From: Escherichia phage vB_EcoS_WF5505
Sequence record: NC_073060.1
DNA length: 47,082 bases
Reading direction: 5' to 3' (one strand)
Below, one piece after another: positions 1-47,082 of the stretch; the stretch's first letter is position 1; each line of letters opens with the position of its first letter. Under the pieces are notes generated by a model. It was given only the letters and a program-made list of their open reading frames with translations, had not been told where the DNA came from and did no database searches. Position numbers and translations under genes: made by a program.

Positions 1-103
1 CAGCAGATAGCGATCAACTTTTTCATACGCATGATTAATATTGGTTGCATTCAGCCTGGCACCCTGCTAGATTGGTTGCACACCAACGAGAGGACCAAAC
101 AAA

Positions 104-274
104 ATGAAATTTCCAGTAACCATCAAAGACGGTAAATCAACTATCACCTTCACCAGCAACGACCAGGGCACCTATGAAAGCGGGGCGACTTGCATGTCTA
201 CCCTGGACGATGTGATGATTCGTGTTAATTCCGGTAAAGCCTCGATTGTTGACGACAACACTAAGAAGGACTGA
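104..274 (+). CDS. Hypothetical small early protein (56 aa, MKFPVTIKDG...)
   Basis: ATG preceded by GAGAGG Shine-Dalgarno; stop 3 nt before next ATG; under 60 aa so absent from ORF track. Confidence 0.5.
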   Translation: MKFPVTIKDGKSTITFTSNDQGTYESGATCMSTLDDVMIRVNSGKASIVDDNTKKD

Positions 275-277
275 ACA

Positions 278-583
278 ATGAGAGCATTAATCTGGAAATA
301 CTCACGGGCCATAGCGAAGCTGGACGAAGCGAAAAACACAAACGGCAACGTAGACTATGCGCGCCAGTTTGCGGCACGGGCACACCAACACATCATGAGT
401 GCGCTCGACGATATGGACGCCAGCATGGATGACCTGGGTCCGCTGCGTAAGGCTATCCATGAATACGCGCTGGCATTCTCCCGTGAGCGCCTGGCCTATC
501 GCTTCGGTATTGGCGATAAGGCAGTGACAAACGTTGCCCGGATTAAAGCCCAGCGTGAGCTATTCGCCCAGCTTGCGAAATAA
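278..583 (+). CDS. Hypothetical early protein (101 aa)
   Basis: Track ORF in a tightly packed same-strand gene run; no recognisable motif. Confidence 0.6.
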   Translation: MRALIWKYSRAIAKLDEAKNTNGNVDYARQFAARAHQHIMSALDDMDASMDDLGPLRKAIHEYALAFSRERLAYRFGIGDKAVTNVARIKAQRELFAQLAK

Positions 584-592
584 GAGGCCAAA

Positions 593-862
593 ATGACCCG
601 TAGACGCGCAAAACAGCTTTCGTGGCATATCCCCCTGCATTGCATACGAATATGGGCTAAGAATGCGAATGAGGGCGATTCAGTGTTCTGGTGCTATCGC
701 GACGACGTTAAGCCGTTGACGCAGACTCGCTACTTGCACCAGTTCGCAGCACAACACGATTTCAGGGTGCGGACTTCCTTGCAACCAATGGGGATCCGTA
801 TTACATTACGCCGGAAGCCCGCCGTTGAGCGGGTAGGCAAACACTGGAGACTGAGCAAATGA
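593..862 (+). CDS. Hypothetical early protein (89 aa)
   Basis: Track ORF; stop overlaps start of next gene (ATGA coupling). Confidence 0.55.
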   Translation: MTRRRAKQLSWHIPLHCIRIWAKNANEGDSVFWCYRDDVKPLTQTRYLHQFAAQHDFRVRTSLQPMGIRITLRRKPAVERVGKHWRLSK

Positions 863-1203
863 TTCGAGTAACCGCACGCCACGAACAATCGGGGGCCACT
901 TACGATGTAATCGACGTTCGCGGCGCGTTCGTCATCTTCGGACGGGGTGACGACCGGCTGGCGCTGCCGATCGGTATGCTGAGCACATACGACTATTTCA
1001 AGCATAACGTCCGGTGTGGCGATGTGCTGCGCGATAAGCGCACCGGTGAGCTATGGACGGTGGCGAGTATTTGGGTGAAAGATAAACGGCAGCACACGTT
1101 ATTGCTCGCCCGCCCGGATTGCAAACAGCAAACTATTAACACTATTGGCCTGGTGGACTACACCCGCGTAGGCCGTAACGCTACCTGGAGACTGAGAAAA
1201 TGA
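859..1203 (+). CDS. Hypothetical protein, paralogue A (114 aa)
   Basis: Track ORF; shares GDVLRD-R-G-LW-V and GL--Y-RVGR motifs with the next gene. Confidence 0.6.
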   Translation: MIRVTARHEQSGATYDVIDVRGAFVIFGRGDDRLALPIGMLSTYDYFKHNVRCGDVLRDKRTGELWTVASIWVKDKRQHTLLLARPDCKQQTINTIGLVDYTRVGRNATWRLRK

Positions 1204-1832
1204 AATTACTATTCCGCCGTAACTCAGATGGCTATATCCTGAAGCCGATCCAGACCCTATCGAACTGGGTACGCCTCCACCACGTTGCGAGTGATAAAGT
1301 CTGGTGGGCGACTAAGGCAAAGCTGCCGGAGTACTACGAAATCCTCACACACGATATCGAGCGCGGCGATGTGCTGCGGGATATTCGCGACGGGCAATTG
1401 TGGGTCGTGGAATACGTGGGTCGGCACGGCCTGCGTATGACGTCCCGCAAGGATGGCGTAGCGGGCAACATGGTCAAGGGCATGACTTACTTCGGGCTAC
1501 TCCACTACGAACGAGTGGGCCGCAAGTACAGCCTGCGTGCGCGCCAGCCTCATGAGCGAGCGAACGCCATAGCGGACGTCGTTAACCGCGTAGCGCGGGA
1601 GGTGGAGCAGAAGACACGCGTTGAGTTCTGCAAGTCCCAGCCAGCCTATGCAACCTACGACGCGAGCAAAGCGCAGGAATTGATCCGCAGTGCCACGCAT
1701 GAAATCATCAATCACGTTGATGCCATGACGAACGCCAAGCGCCAGGCCAGCGAATACGGCGTAGGATTCATCCGTGTCGAACAAGACGGCAACATGACCG
1801 CCATCGACCCGCGCACGGTAATACTGAAATGA
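1200..1832 (+). CDS. Hypothetical protein, paralogue B (210 aa)
   Basis: Track ORF; N-terminal half is paralogous to 859-1203, translationally coupled (ATGA). Confidence 0.6.
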   Translation: MKLLFRRNSDGYILKPIQTLSNWVRLHHVASDKVWWATKAKLPEYYEILTHDIERGDVLRDIRDGQLWVVEYVGRHGLRMTSRKDGVAGNMVKGMTYFGLLHYERVGRKYSLRARQPHERANAIADVVNRVAREVEQKTRVEFCKSQPAYATYDASKAQELIRSATHEIINHVDAMTNAKRQASEYGVGFIRVEQDGNMTAIDPRTVILK

Positions 1833-1953
1833 GCGCAACTATCCGTGATATGCTTATGCATAACCGCTTTGAGATAGGCGGGAGAGTGTTCTGCAATTAC
1901 TTCGTGGCGCGTGCTTGGGCGCGCCATATCGGAAAACCAGTAGGGGCAATACG

Positions 1954-2241
1954 ATGCTACACGATTTGATATTTTGGTTTGGTTTGGGGTGTGCGTCACT
2001 CTTTGCTATAGTGCTGGCGCTGTTGATTTGGATCTTTCTGGTATGGCCCGCGGTGGAAGCCGCCAGCATTACCCGGATGACGTTCCAGATATACAAGCGC
2101 CGAGGCATAACGGAACACCCGACCAGGTTGCGCATGTGGTGGCTATGGTATCTGGATATGCTTGGAGGCCGAAGGTTTGAGGCCGTCCGATCATCCGGGT
2201 GGGAATGGAAAGGCGTCGGCAAGTGGTCCATTTTCGATTAA
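1954..2241 (+). CDS. Small membrane protein (about 95 aa)
   Basis: ATG with AGGGG RBS, in frame with track ORF 1915-2241; hydrophobic helix FWFGLGCASLFAIVLALLIWIFLVW. Confidence 0.5.
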   Translation: MLHDLIFWFGLGCASLFAIVLALLIWIFLVWPAVEAASITRMTFQIYKRRGITEHPTRLRMWWLWYLDMLGGRRFEAVRSSGWEWKGVGKWSIFD

Positions 2242-41235: not shown

Positions 41236-41283
41236 TGTCTCGTCCTCTAAAAATAGGCCCGCAGATTAGCGGGCCGGATAATA

Positions 41284-41805
41284 TTAATCTTCTAATTCGA
41301 AATACGTTTCTACGATTTCTTTTAAATCTTTGTGGAAGTCTTCGACGTCGTCATCTTCCAGCTTGGCAACGGATTTAATTTCGAACGCTTCCAGCAGATC
41401 ATCAAATTCGTCGTTTGCGTCGTCGTCATCACCGCCCGCAATAATAGCGGCATACTGCTTGATTTCGTCGCGCATTTCTTTCAGCGGATCGGCATCTTTC
41501 TTGCCTTTACCTTTCGCCGGTGCTTTCTTAGACTTCGCTGGGGCTTCTTCTTCGTCGTCCGCGTCGTCGTCTTCTTCTACGGCTTCTTTCTTAGCCTTGC
41601 CCTTAGCCGGGGCTTTTTTGGTCTTAGCCGGAGCTTCGTCTTCAGCGTCGTCATCTTCGACCACTTCTTCTTTCGCCTTGCCATTAGCCGGGGCTTTCTT
41701 CGCTTCCTGTTTACCAACGGCAGCGCCAGCAGTTTCATAATGCTTAGCGATTACTTCCAGTGCTACTACGCCGCGTGTGATCAGGTTTACGATTTGCTCA
41801 AACAT
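41284..41805 (-). CDS. Hypothetical acidic protein with tandem charged repeats (173 aa)
   Basis: Two copies of (D/E)n-EAPAK-KKAPAKGK-KK, then acidic C-terminus; first gene of the minus-strand module. Confidence 0.55.
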   Translation of the reverse strand: MFEQIVNLITRGVVALEVIAKHYETAGAAVGKQEAKKAPANGKAKEEVVEDDDAEDEAPAKTKKAPAKGKAKKEAVEEDDDADDEEEAPAKSKKAPAKGKGKKDADPLKEMRDEIKQYAAIIAGGDDDDANDEFDDLLEAFEIKSVAKLEDDDVEDFHKDLKEIVETYFELED

Positions 41806-41906
41806 GGTATATCTCCGATTGGTTAATTTAAGTGTTCGGTGCGGTGTGCCCCGTCAACGAGGTGAATAATAGATTGGTTGCAGGCGGGGTGTCAACAACT
41901 AATTTC

Positions 41907-41942
41907 AAAAAAAAAAGCGCCGAGGCAAAATGCGACGGCGCT
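41907..41942 (-). terminator. Rho-independent terminator (minus strand) in divergent intergenic region
   Basis: On minus strand AGCGCCG-loop-CGGCGCT followed by T10; lies upstream of the 41805 start. Confidence 0.55.
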
Positions 41943-42012
41943 AACCAATAAGAGACAATGAGACGTGATTATTATTACACGCGTGCGCGCCCGTTTCAAT
42001 ATTCAAAAGGAG

Positions 42013-42041
42013 TTGACACCCTGCAATTTTAGGTGTAGTTT
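42013..42041 (+). promoter_or_regulatory. Candidate sigma70 promoter for HTH regulator gene
   Basis: Consensus -35 TTGACA (42013-42018), 17-bp spacer, -10-like TAGTTT; about 30 bp upstream of ATG 42073. Confidence 0.4.
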
Positions 42042-42072
42042 CGTTGGTCATTAACCAATAGGAGACAGAACA

Positions 42073-42402
42073 ATGCATATCAACGACGCAATCGAAATGT
42101 TAACCAATGCTGTTAGCGGTGAGACAAGCCGGTCCTGGGCTTATACCGATGCCGTGGGTGAGGTGCTATTTGAAATCGAACGTCTGCGCAGTGTCGAAAA
42201 AGAATTGCGCGCCAAGCTGGAATTGCTAAACGGTACGGCAGCAAGCAAGTTGCAAAAGCACAATGAAGAAATGGAAGAATACAAAAAGCAGGTTATCCGT
42301 TTGCGCGACGAGGGCAAGTCCTGGGCGATGATTGCCGAGTTGACCGGAATTAATCAAAGCACCGTGCGCTCCTGGGTACGCAATAATAAAACTTCTAAGT
42401 AA
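42073..42402 (+). CDS. HTH DNA-binding protein (putative transcriptional regulator)
   Basis: 109 aa; C-terminal HTH-like SWAMIAELTGINQSTVRSWV; N-terminal coiled-coil-like region. Confidence 0.6.
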   Translation: MHINDAIEMLTNAVSGETSRSWAYTDAVGEVLFEIERLRSVEKELRAKLELLNGTAASKLQKHNEEMEEYKKQVIRLRDEGKSWAMIAELTGINQSTVRSWVRNNKTSK

Positions 42403-44945: not shown

Positions 44946-45159
44946 AAATCCTGGATTGCATAATGCACGGCAGCATGATGAGAATTGCGGTCGTTGATGA
45001 ACTAGGCAACCAATGCGAGTTGGATAATGGAGAGTGAAAAATGCAGTTTGCAGTTACAGCAGATAGCGATCAACTTTTTCATACGCATGATTAATATTGG
45101 TTGCATTCAGCCTGGCACCCTGCTAGATTGGTTGCACACCAACGAGAGGACCAAACAAA

Positions 45160-45330
45160 ATGAAATTTCCAGTAACCATCAAAGACGGTAAATCAACTAT
45201 CACCTTCACCAGCAACGACCAGGGCACCTATGAAAGCGGGGCGACTTGCATGTCTACCCTGGACGATGTGATGATTCGTGTTAATTCCGGTAAAGCCTCG
45301 ATTGTTGACGACAACACTAAGAAGGACTGA
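45160..45330 (+). CDS. Duplicate of 104-274 (small early protein)
   Basis: Inside right repeat, identical sequence. Confidence 0.5.
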   Translation: MKFPVTIKDGKSTITFTSNDQGTYESGATCMSTLDDVMIRVNSGKASIVDDNTKKD

Positions 45331-45333
45331 ACA

Positions 45334-45639
45334 ATGAGAGCATTAATCTGGAAATACTCACGGGCCATAGCGAAGCTGGACGAAGCGAAAAACACAAACG
45401 GCAACGTAGACTATGCGCGCCAGTTTGCGGCACGGGCACACCAACACATCATGAGTGCGCTCGACGATATGGACGCCAGCATGGATGACCTGGGTCCGCT
45501 GCGTAAGGCTATCCATGAATACGCGCTGGCATTCTCCCGTGAGCGCCTGGCCTATCGCTTCGGTATTGGCGATAAGGCAGTGACAAACGTTGCCCGGATT
45601 AAAGCCCAGCGTGAGCTATTCGCCCAGCTTGCGAAATAA
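45334..45639 (+). CDS. Duplicate of 278-583
   Basis: Identical translation in ORF track. Confidence 0.6.
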   Translation: MRALIWKYSRAIAKLDEAKNTNGNVDYARQFAARAHQHIMSALDDMDASMDDLGPLRKAIHEYALAFSRERLAYRFGIGDKAVTNVARIKAQRELFAQLAK

Positions 45640-45648
45640 GAGGCCAAA

Positions 45649-45918
45649 ATGACCCGTAGACGCGCAAAACAGCTTTCGTGGCATATCCCCCTGCATTGCA
45701 TACGAATATGGGCTAAGAATGCGAATGAGGGCGATTCAGTGTTCTGGTGCTATCGCGACGACGTTAAGCCGTTGACGCAGACTCGCTACTTGCACCAGTT
45801 CGCAGCACAACACGATTTCAGGGTGCGGACTTCCTTGCAACCAATGGGGATCCGTATTACATTACGCCGGAAGCCCGCCGTTGAGCGGGTAGGCAAACAC
45901 TGGAGACTGAGCAAATGA
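45649..45918 (+). CDS. Duplicate of 593-862
   Basis: Identical translation in ORF track. Confidence 0.55.
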   Translation: MTRRRAKQLSWHIPLHCIRIWAKNANEGDSVFWCYRDDVKPLTQTRYLHQFAAQHDFRVRTSLQPMGIRITLRRKPAVERVGKHWRLSK

Positions 45919-46259
45919 TTCGAGTAACCGCACGCCACGAACAATCGGGGGCCACTTACGATGTAATCGACGTTCGCGGCGCGTTCGTCATCTTCGGACG
46001 GGGTGACGACCGGCTGGCGCTGCCGATCGGTATGCTGAGCACATACGACTATTTCAAGCATAACGTCCGGTGTGGCGATGTGCTGCGCGATAAGCGCACC
46101 GGTGAGCTATGGACGGTGGCGAGTATTTGGGTGAAAGATAAACGGCAGCACACGTTATTGCTCGCCCGCCCGGATTGCAAACAGCAAACTATTAACACTA
46201 TTGGCCTGGTGGACTACACCCGCGTAGGCCGTAACGCTACCTGGAGACTGAGAAAATGA
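45915..46259 (+). CDS. Duplicate of 859-1203 (paralogue A)
   Basis: Identical translation in ORF track. Confidence 0.6.
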   Translation: MIRVTARHEQSGATYDVIDVRGAFVIFGRGDDRLALPIGMLSTYDYFKHNVRCGDVLRDKRTGELWTVASIWVKDKRQHTLLLARPDCKQQTINTIGLVDYTRVGRNATWRLRK

Positions 46260-46888
46260 AATTACTATTCCGCCGTAACTCAGATGGCTATATCCTGAAG
46301 CCGATCCAGACCCTATCGAACTGGGTACGCCTCCACCACGTTGCGAGTGATAAAGTCTGGTGGGCGACTAAGGCAAAGCTGCCGGAGTACTACGAAATCC
46401 TCACACACGATATCGAGCGCGGCGATGTGCTGCGGGATATTCGCGACGGGCAATTGTGGGTCGTGGAATACGTGGGTCGGCACGGCCTGCGTATGACGTC
46501 CCGCAAGGATGGCGTAGCGGGCAACATGGTCAAGGGCATGACTTACTTCGGGCTACTCCACTACGAACGAGTGGGCCGCAAGTACAGCCTGCGTGCGCGC
46601 CAGCCTCATGAGCGAGCGAACGCCATAGCGGACGTCGTTAACCGCGTAGCGCGGGAGGTGGAGCAGAAGACACGCGTTGAGTTCTGCAAGTCCCAGCCAG
46701 CCTATGCAACCTACGACGCGAGCAAAGCGCAGGAATTGATCCGCAGTGCCACGCATGAAATCATCAATCACGTTGATGCCATGACGAACGCCAAGCGCCA
46801 GGCCAGCGAATACGGCGTAGGATTCATCCGTGTCGAACAAGACGGCAACATGACCGCCATCGACCCGCGCACGGTAATACTGAAATGA
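46256..46888 (+). CDS. Duplicate of 1200-1832 (paralogue B)
   Basis: Identical translation in ORF track. Confidence 0.6.
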   Translation: MKLLFRRNSDGYILKPIQTLSNWVRLHHVASDKVWWATKAKLPEYYEILTHDIERGDVLRDIRDGQLWVVEYVGRHGLRMTSRKDGVAGNMVKGMTYFGLLHYERVGRKYSLRARQPHERANAIADVVNRVAREVEQKTRVEFCKSQPAYATYDASKAQELIRSATHEIINHVDAMTNAKRQASEYGVGFIRVEQDGNMTAIDPRTVILK

Positions 46889-47009
46889 GCGCAACTATCC
46901 GTGATATGCTTATGCATAACCGCTTTGAGATAGGCGGGAGAGTGTTCTGCAATTACTTCGTGGCGCGTGCTTGGGCGCGCCATATCGGAAAACCAGTAGG
47001 GGCAATACG

Positions 47010-47082
47010 ATGCTACACGATTTGATATTTTGGTTTGGTTTGGGGTGTGCGTCACTCTTTGCTATAGTGCTGGCGCTGTTGA
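47010..47082 (+). CDS. 5' fragment of duplicate of 1954-2241, truncated by window end
   Basis: Same sequence as 1954-2026; the window (and the repeat) ends inside the gene. Confidence 0.4.
   Translation, partial: MLHDLIFWFGLGCASLFAIVLALL

Follow-up and report, generated by a model that had tools for sequence, protein, structure and literature searches.

The genome record of Escherichia phage vB_EcoS_WF5505 (NC_073060.1; 47,082 nucleotides (nt), the whole of which is referred to here as the window) appears to contain a gene for a small RNA in the gap that separates its leftward and rightward early genes. The candidate RNA is about 58 nt long and is read from the minus strand, from 41964 to 41907. 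It has its own predicted promoter and terminator, is non-coding, and begins with an unstructured and conserved segment, termed here the seed, which is complementary to the ribosome-binding site of the adjacent rightward gene, encoding a protein with a helix-turn-helix (HTH) domain. Judged from the sequence and its conservation, the transcription unit itself probably exists. The fuller interpretation, which we favour tentatively and at somewhat less than an even chance, is that it represents a standalone small-RNA gene, conserved throughout the genus Dhillonvirus, whose product would repress the adjacent early ribosome-binding sites by antisense pairing.

Plus-strand genes occupy positions 859-29390 of the window and resume at 42073, and minus-strand genes run from 41805 down to 29417. 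With the minus-strand genes to the left and the plus-strand genes to the right, the 267-nt gap at 41806-42072 is the single point from which both directions of early transcription diverge. The initial annotation, made from the sequence of the window, had pointed to this region as a divergent control region, and it is indeed the main one, being the sole divergence of minus- and plus-strand genes in the genome. The same annotation proposed that a minus-strand promoter and terminator found here could together yield a short terminated RNA, either an attenuator or a small RNA, and that a ribosome-binding context had been duplicated on the plus strand. The promoter-terminator pair is borne out as a prediction, and it is the small-RNA alternative that is favoured, as an independent unit with an unpaired, near-invariant 5' segment.

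The predicted promoter of the small RNA, P_s, is found on the minus strand at 41971..41999. It consists of a -35 hexamer TTGAAA (41999..41994), a 17-nt GC-rich spacer, a TG dinucleotide (41979..41978) and a -10 hexamer AATAAT (41976..41971). In a consensus scan it matches at 10 of 12 positions in addition to the TG, which makes it a sigma-70-type promoter with an extended -10 and a hexamer spacing within the 16-18 nt range; its activity is predicted. Promoter-like matches are not enriched in the surrounding 3 kb, where four were found against 2.7 expected, and the support for P_s therefore comes from its conservation. This was assessed in 18 GenBank phage records together with IMG/VR and metagenome contigs, giving 32 distinct sequences. 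Among these relatives all nine columns of the 9-nt extended -10 are invariant, as are five of the six columns of the -35. The TTGAAA-17-AATAAT promoter had been noticed previously, although it was placed at about 41965-41995 rather than at 41999..41971.

Downstream of P_s is an intrinsic terminator (41907..41942, minus strand), comprising a 7-base-pair (bp) GC-rich outer stem, a 2x2 internal loop, a 3-bp inner stem and a 3-nt loop, followed by a U-tract. The outer stem pairs AGCGCCG (41916-41922) with CGGCGCT (41936-41942) and contains six G-C pairs, while the 13 nt that it encloses include the 3-bp helix GCA/UGC. A run of ten A residues on the plus strand (41907-41916) provides the U-tract, nine U residues of which directly follow the stem. 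This tail is the only T or A run of eight or more on either strand of the window; among relatives its length varies between 8 and 13 T. A consensus terminator scan missed the hairpin because it permits loops of only 3-8 nt. As a GC-rich hairpin with an immediate U-tract the structure has the features of an intrinsic terminator, and termination here is predicted on that basis. The hairpin and T-run reported by the initial annotation are thus real (stem at 41916-41942), and so is their unusual placement, upstream of the first minus-strand gene and downstream of none, since only plus-strand genes lie to the right, from 42073 onwards.

The RNA bounded by these two elements, 5'-GUCUCAUUGUCUCUUAUUGGUUAGCGCCGUCGCAUUUUGCCUCGGCGCUUUUUUUUUU-3' (41907..41964, minus strand), folds with a free energy of -16.7 kcal/mol (z = -3.85), and none of 200 shuffled sequences was equally stable. 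Its 5' end is placed near 41964, within about 2 nt, because of the spacing from the -10 hexamer and because this is the point at which conservation begins. The first 22 nt, the seed GUCUCAUUGUCUCUUAUUGGUU (41943..41964, minus strand), contain two GUCUC motifs and are unpaired in both the minimum-energy and the centroid folds. No complement to either stem arm is present within the 22 nt 5' of the hairpin, so an attenuator-type alternative structure is not available to the RNA. Searches of Rfam returned no family at the gathering score across the whole window; in the intergenic region at E <= 10 there were only six chance matches, driven by the terminator and far below threshold, and a 5-kb region of phage bob gave nothing meaningful at E <= 1. 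The small RNA carries no annotation in any of the 18 phage records inspected.

The pattern of conservation across this segment is distinctive. In the 23 columns spanning the seed (41943-41965) the mean entropy is 0.023 and 21 columns are invariant. By comparison, the discriminator that follows the -10 of P_s varies in both sequence and length (entropy 0.545), and values of 0.59 and 0.58 are obtained for the HTH coding sequence and its initiation region, respectively. Variation in the hairpin is confined to the internal loop and to paired positions. In six distinct variants of the hairpin all ten pairs hold, such that 60 of 60 pair-cells are standard, compared with 40-55% when the partners are slid by one to three columns. 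In the most divergent lineage, L014/L017 (L014 and Dhillonvirus LM40P1), which is about 80% identical, the stem reads AUCCCCG/CGGGGAU; two pairs have changed on both sides, from G-C to U-A and from G-C to C-G, and an inner A-U has become G-U. These compensatory changes constitute good but limited evidence for the stem. Conservation of this kind fits a functional minus-strand RNA with a sequence-specific 5' end, rather than a coding sequence or a mere spacer.

The cassette has been retained in every Dhillonvirus sampled. The region matches 153 phage records. The cassette was read in about 30 distinct contexts, and it is kept in HK578 and CHD5UKE2 despite the different N-terminal part of the rightward gene in these phages. 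It matches Dhillonvirus records only. A BLAST search with the 113-nt cassette against 5,426 E. coli genomes, in which only matches of about 20 nt or more would be visible, returned nothing similar or complementary at E <= 1. Scanning metagenomes with the 16-mer TAAGAGACAATGAGAC gave at least 120 matches, nearly all due to chance, and three additional true contexts (L153, L163 and L178).

A clue to what the RNA might do is provided by a 16-nt repeat, TAACCAATA[A/G]GAGACA. The two copies, TAACCAATAAGAGACA (41942-41957) and TAACCAATAGGAGACA (42052-42067), are identical at 15 of 16 positions and are 110 bp apart from start to start. The repeat was already known from the initial annotation, which gave the spacing as 115 bp and regarded the upstream copy as a duplicated leader. 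The latter description does not survive, since the upstream copy lies inside the small-RNA gene, whose transcript is made from the opposite strand. Consequently the unpaired 5' end of the RNA is antisense to the ribosome-binding site of the HTH gene; the seed is the reverse complement of the upstream copy, TAACCAATAAGAGACAATGAGAC. When up to two mismatches are allowed, the motif TAACCAATNGGAGA occurs four times in the 47-kb window, a number reached in none of 100 shuffles, and three of these matches fall in the intergenic region. A third copy, which had been overlooked, lies on the minus strand at 41812-41825, at the ribosome-binding site of the first leftward gene, and a fourth, TTAACCAAT, is found in codons 10-12 of the HTH gene. 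All three copies of TAACCAAT that lie in mRNA are in the sense orientation of their own transcript.

The strongest predicted target is the initiation region of the HTH gene, ATTAACCAATAGGAGACAGAACAATG (42050..42075, plus strand). Here the seed can form 16 pairs, including a single G-U, with positions 42052-42067, and these cover the Shine-Dalgarno sequence: the RNA segment 5'-UGUCUCUUAUUGGUUA-3' pairs with UAACCAAUAGGAGACA of the HTH gene, and the duplex would lie at the extreme 5' terminus of the mRNA as inferred. Of the non-self sites in a scan of duplexes across the genome this was the best (-23.1 kcal/mol), and when the full-length molecules were cofolded the ddG was -24.1, compared with -10.2 +/- 2.7 for shuffled seeds, none of 200 being as good. 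A second site within the HTH gene (42100..42126, plus strand), made up of TTAACCAAT and GTGAGAC, ranks third among non-self sites with a duplex energy of -22.0. The initiation region of the first leftward gene, TTAACCAATCGGAGATATACCATG (41803..41828, minus strand), is similar to that of the HTH gene at 19 of 23 positions and can likewise pair with the seed (41825..41810), the duplex containing two G-U pairs and a single mismatch; its cofold ddG is -16.0, compared with -8.7 +/- 2.2 for shuffled seeds, again with none of 200 as good. In 12 relatives examined in the same way, no more than two of 50 shuffled seeds matched the pairing at eight of the 12 rightward and nine of the 12 leftward sites.

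If this interpretation is correct, the host sigma-70 RNA polymerase would start at P_s, back to back with the rightward promoter, transcribe about 58 nt leftward and halt at the intrinsic terminator (41942..41907), which would at the same time shield the main leftward promoter from transcription originating at P_s. The RNA, provided that it accumulates, would then, possibly with the help of Hfq, pair through its seed with the leading gene of each early operon, at the Shine-Dalgarno sequence and the start region, thereby reducing translation. Pairing would be strongest at the HTH regulator gene (42052-42067 together with 42100-42126) and weaker at the leftward gene, which encodes a 173-amino-acid (aa) protein (41825..41810). 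The outcome would be a brake on the dosage or the timing of early expression.

Several observations weigh against this interpretation. Only the clade of the window phage (rolling, 22664B1) has the 15/16 match, most relatives having TAACCAAC[C/T]G.. at the HTH gene, and pairing does not exceed that of shuffled seeds at the HK578 and L025 rightward genes or in the L014/L017 lineage. The seed is fixed while its main target region varies (entropy 0.58), and no covariation between seed and target is seen among the relatives, as the seed does not vary. At the leftward site the plain duplex (-16.6 kcal/mol) lies only within the top 1.8% of genome windows, and a pyrimidine-rich UCUC seed will match many Shine-Dalgarno sequences. 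The compensatory changes in the stem all come from one lineage and may represent a single evolutionary event. A further copy of the motif, AACCAAT, is present in the untranscribed spacer of the leftward promoter (41873-41879), where RNA pairing offers no explanation for it. Finally, a search of the literature found no report of a transcriptome or of small RNAs for Dhillonvirus or HK578.

Variation at the targets takes several forms. The ribosome-binding site of the HTH gene reads TAACCAACCGGAGACA, TAACCAACTGAGGGCA and others among the relatives, the internal HTH site at 42100-42126 is not conserved in the 80%-identity lineage, and target pairing is in general weaker in the relatives than in the window phage. 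Given this weaker pairing and the lack of covariation, we infer the identity of the target. Several further strong seed duplexes fall on non-coding strands, and other strong sites in the phage are not conserved. One sequence among the best seed duplexes, AAAACCAGTAGGGGCAATACGATG (1930-1957, plus strand), is the initiation region of a small hydrophobic open reading frame (ORF; MLHDLIFWFGLGCASLFAIVLALLIWIFL...) and resembles the TAACCAAT-GGAG motif. Although the next-best site in the phage, it was rejected as a target because its pairing positions vary in relatives.

The arrangement of the other promoters in the gap bears on how the small RNA is to be understood. The main leftward promoter, P_L (41866..41895, minus strand), has the form TTGACA-18-TATTAT and matches at 11 of 12 positions in the scan. 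It was not recognized in the initial annotation, is conserved in relatives, and sits between the terminator and the first minus-strand gene; the T-tract of the terminator and AAATTAGTTG are immediately upstream of its -35, the end of the terminator being 11-12 nt away. P_L is predicted to drive the leftward operon as well as the 173-aa gene. Read along the minus strand, the elements are thus P_s, an RNA of about 58 nt, the terminator, P_L, a leader and the gene. As P_L separates the terminator from the gene, the terminated RNA is a unit of its own (41964 to 41907) and not the leader of that gene. The rightward promoter, P_R (42013..42041, plus strand), has a -35 TTGACA (42013-42018), a 17-nt spacer and a -10 TAGTTT (42036-42041), with an inferred start at about 42048. 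It was read from the sequence, as its -10 matches at only three of six positions and falls below the scan threshold; in the 32 relatives no column of the -35 varies and only one of the six columns of the -10 does. P_s and P_R are back to back, 13 bp apart. In the GenBank record of HK578 promoters are annotated at the same three places, equivalent to P_s, P_L and P_R.

The -35 regions of P_L (41884-41896) and P_R (42012-42024) are identical at 12 of 13 positions in inverted orientation (GTTGACACCC[C/T]GC), with weaker similarity in relatives. This likeness, along with that of the initiation regions, gives the two halves of the control region the appearance of a partial inverted duplication. Between P_L and the 173-aa gene, the leader (41828-41865) exists in two forms. 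The short form is found in the window, rolling, YD-2008.s, Envy, JLBYU37, Zumzum and CHD5UKE2, and the long form, with about 135 nt extra, in most relatives (for example phage bob, L001 2130-2300); some records extend the coding sequence across the insert. The structure of the 135-nt insert is unremarkable (z = 0.15) and it has no Rfam match.

Other explanations for the cassette must be considered. A fixed seed facing a drifting phage target leaves room for a target in the host, and it is unlikely, though by no means negligible, that the small RNA is real but has its selected target elsewhere, in a host mRNA or protein or another phage transcript, with the HTH match in the window's clade being secondary. 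The contrast between the near-invariant seed (0.023) and the variable HTH initiation region (0.58) would be accounted for, as would the weak pairing in the L014/L017 lineage and HK578, and an unpaired seed joined to a hairpin with a long U-tail is how host-type trans-acting small RNAs are built. Set against this, the 113-nt region has no similar or complementary stretch in E. coli at E <= 1, within the reach of a search that sees only about 20 nt or more; the remaining strong phage sites are not conserved, and it is the adjacent HTH mRNA that contains the two best-placed sites. Alternatively, the repeated TAACCAAT/ATTGGTTA could be a DNA operator used by the HTH protein, or by some other regulator, to switch off the early promoters; the apparent duplicated leader would then be operator half-sites and the transcript incidental. 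Of the five or six TAACCAAT octamers in the window, four do lie within 290 nt (41818-42108), every relative, L014/L017 among them, keeps the AACCAAT of the untranscribed P_L spacer, the motif at P_R forms GTTGGT-N5-ACCAA[C/T] over the inferred start site, and the adjacent gene encodes an HTH_23/sigma-70 region 4-like domain that is kept in HK578. We nevertheless consider an operator quite unlikely to be the whole explanation. The only palindromic site is that at P_R, and HK578 lacks the P_R copy while keeping the others; moreover, the invariant block of 23 nt extends far beyond an 8-nt motif, the other copies of which have variable flanks, and an operator leaves unexplained the invariant extended -10, the compensatory stem changes and the T-tract. 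The two mechanisms could coexist. HK578 and CHD5UKE2 were considered as natural 'no-HTH' controls and discarded for this purpose, as their different rightward gene keeps the same HTH domain (48% over 67 aa).

It is improbable that P_s and the terminator serve only the mechanics of transcription or replication, with a functionless RNA, whether as a divergent partner for P_R through supercoiling coupling, an insulator of P_L, an UP element provided by the T-tract, or an origin primer or R-loop. The 13-bp separation of P_s and P_R and the position of the terminator 11 nt before the P_L -35, with the intervening segment conserved, would suit such roles, and a primase-helicase gene is about 500 bp away; none of them, however, needs a near-invariant transcribed sequence of 23 nt beside a variable discriminator, and neither iterons nor other origin-like repeats were found in the region. 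A terminated leader governing the first minus-strand gene by regulated read-through, as in the attenuator originally suggested, is very improbable. The terminator and this gene do share a strand, with the terminator upstream, and transcription from P_s that read through it would reach the operon, but the conserved near-consensus P_L (11/12; 41895..41866) intervenes and most relatives have the gene another 135 nt away. Nor can an antiterminator form, since the 5' 22 nt are unpaired and hold no competitor for either stem arm, and there is no leader peptide on this strand. It is scarcely credible that the upstream repeat copy is instead the true ribosome-binding site of a plus-strand micro-ORF of 24 codons that serves the HTH gene as a leader peptide or upstream ORF. 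An ATG preceded at 5 nt by AAGAGA and an open frame of 19-31 codons are present in all relatives; yet the frame switches among them and the peptide is not conserved, no upstream plus-strand promoter was found, and translation would cross P_s and P_R to end before the inferred start of the HTH mRNA.

This 24-codon ORF (41958..42032, plus strand) exists as the initial annotation described it, running across P_s and P_R, but it is judged not to be a gene. Indels of 1 nt switch its frame between relatives (..YYYTRARPFQY.. versus ..LLLHACAPVSI..). On the minus strand an ORF of 45 aa (41941..42078) was also rejected, as it spans both promoters and has a start codon only where the HTH gene begins ATGCAT, that is, in the window's clade. 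Coding sequences of 45-48 aa are annotated at 41941-42078, across P_R and P_s, in CHD5UKE2 (gp39), 22664B1 (22664B1_068) and Zumzum (CDS0048); these are very likely spurious.

The phage itself belongs to Dhillonvirus, a genus of E. coli siphoviruses resembling HK578, SO-1 and bob. A 2-kb query around the cassette retrieved 163 phage records, nearly all of them Escherichia phages of this genus, at 80-96% identity. The suggestion that the region is an early/late decision point is not supported; one characterised member of the genus is described as lytic (PMC13348001). Two records with other host names, 'Campylobacter phage A144' (MG065648.1, UNVERIFIED) and 'Acinetobacter phage NJ01' (OQ221563.1), are Dhillonvirus by sequence, with about 88-91% identity to the region, and their host labels are doubtful. 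The first 2,026 nt of the window (1-2026) recur at 45057-47082, giving a unit length of about 45,056 bp, which fits a circularly permuted or terminally redundant assembly read beyond its end.

To the left of the gap lies the gene for the 173-aa acidic, lysine-rich protein (41284-41805, minus strand), which belongs to a PHROG of unknown function restricted to Dhillonvirus; the gene matches Dhillonvirus records only. The product is of low complexity, with acidic runs alternating with KKAPAKGKAKKE-type repeats, and has no Pfam match; in the bob and jat records a repeat_region is annotated within the gene. A clean minus-strand intrinsic terminator (41256-41275; GGCCCGC..GCGGGCC followed by TATTTTT) is directly 3' of it. 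With a near-consensus promoter on one side and a terminator on the other, the 173-aa gene has the arrangement anticipated for an early gene that is strongly expressed. To the right, a 109-aa protein with a C-terminal HTH_23/sigma-70 region 4-like domain is followed by the primase-helicase. In HK578 (L002 1930-2358) and CHD5UKE2 (L018 1195-1644) the first rightward gene is 142-149 aa long, and its N-terminal part and ribosome-binding site are unrelated to those of the window phage. The C-terminal HTH domain has been kept, at 48% identity over 67 aa, and the small-RNA cassette upstream is unchanged.

To our knowledge few regulatory RNAs from virulent phages are known, and routine annotation misses them. 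It is possible, if doubtful, that a single RNA co-represses the first gene of both early operons, encoding the HTH regulator and the abundant 173-aa protein, or that the seed targets a host transcript; in either event it would be the first regulatory small RNA of Dhillonvirus. The genus is common in collections of E. coli phages, including the BASEL set, some members are therapy candidates, and the unit is present in all those sampled. Should the RNA be made and act on the adjoining ribosome-binding sites, it would provide a simple form of post-transcriptional control of early genes in a lytic phage, and would show how inverted copying of a target site can give rise to a trans-acting antisense RNA. 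For annotation, the spurious coding sequences called across the region in several GenBank records would be better replaced by the promoters, the terminator and a non-coding RNA feature.

Comparison with known systems helps to place the candidate. In attenuators, as here, an intrinsic terminator comes within 60 nt of a promoter and a gene follows on that strand. The candidate differs from them in that a strong promoter intervenes, and in having no alternative structure, leader peptide, or ligand- or protein-binding fold. Like P22 sar and lambda OOP, the candidate is short, has its own promoter and terminator, and lies beside a regulatory gene. These two phage RNAs are cis-antisense transcripts with their own promoter and intrinsic terminator that influence how a neighbouring regulatory gene is expressed, and sar acts at the ribosome-binding site of ant (PMC12197685). 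Whereas sar and OOP overlap their targets and are perfectly complementary to them, the candidate falls about 105 nt short of where the HTH mRNA is inferred to begin, and is directed away from it. Since it does not overlap the HTH transcript, pairing is possible only through the duplicated 16-nt segment, and the candidate is not a cis-antisense RNA.

Base-pairing small RNAs of enterobacteria can also be encoded by phages or prophages, DicF being an example. The class of trans-encoded base-pairing small RNAs as a whole has been described (PMC12197685). In common with its members, the candidate has a sigma-70 promoter, a length of 50-60 nt, an unpaired conserved seed and a terminator with a long U-tail, and it shows imperfect complementarity to non-overlapping mRNAs at their Shine-Dalgarno and start regions. 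It departs from them in belonging to a virulent siphovirus, in lying about 85 nt from its best predicted target, and in being an apparent inverted copy of the ribosome-binding site of that target; nothing related to it in sequence was found in Rfam or among E. coli genomes, and both its expression and its dependence on Hfq are putative.

Among phage RNAs, it is c4 that the candidate differs from least in its presumed mode of action. The c4 RNA of the temperate phages P1 and P7 is excised from the transcript that it regulates, being located upstream on the same strand, and controls an antirepressor. The candidate, by contrast, has a promoter of its own on the opposite strand, belongs to a lytic phage, and matches no Rfam family, which would include any C4 model. 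In P1 and P7 the RNA is not encoded opposite its target; it carries short copies able to pair with a ribosome-binding region elsewhere in that control region, and it prevents an early regulator from being translated (PMC12197685). The candidate would work in much the same manner, as a non-overlapping RNA carrying a copy complementary to the ribosome-binding region of a neighbouring early gene.

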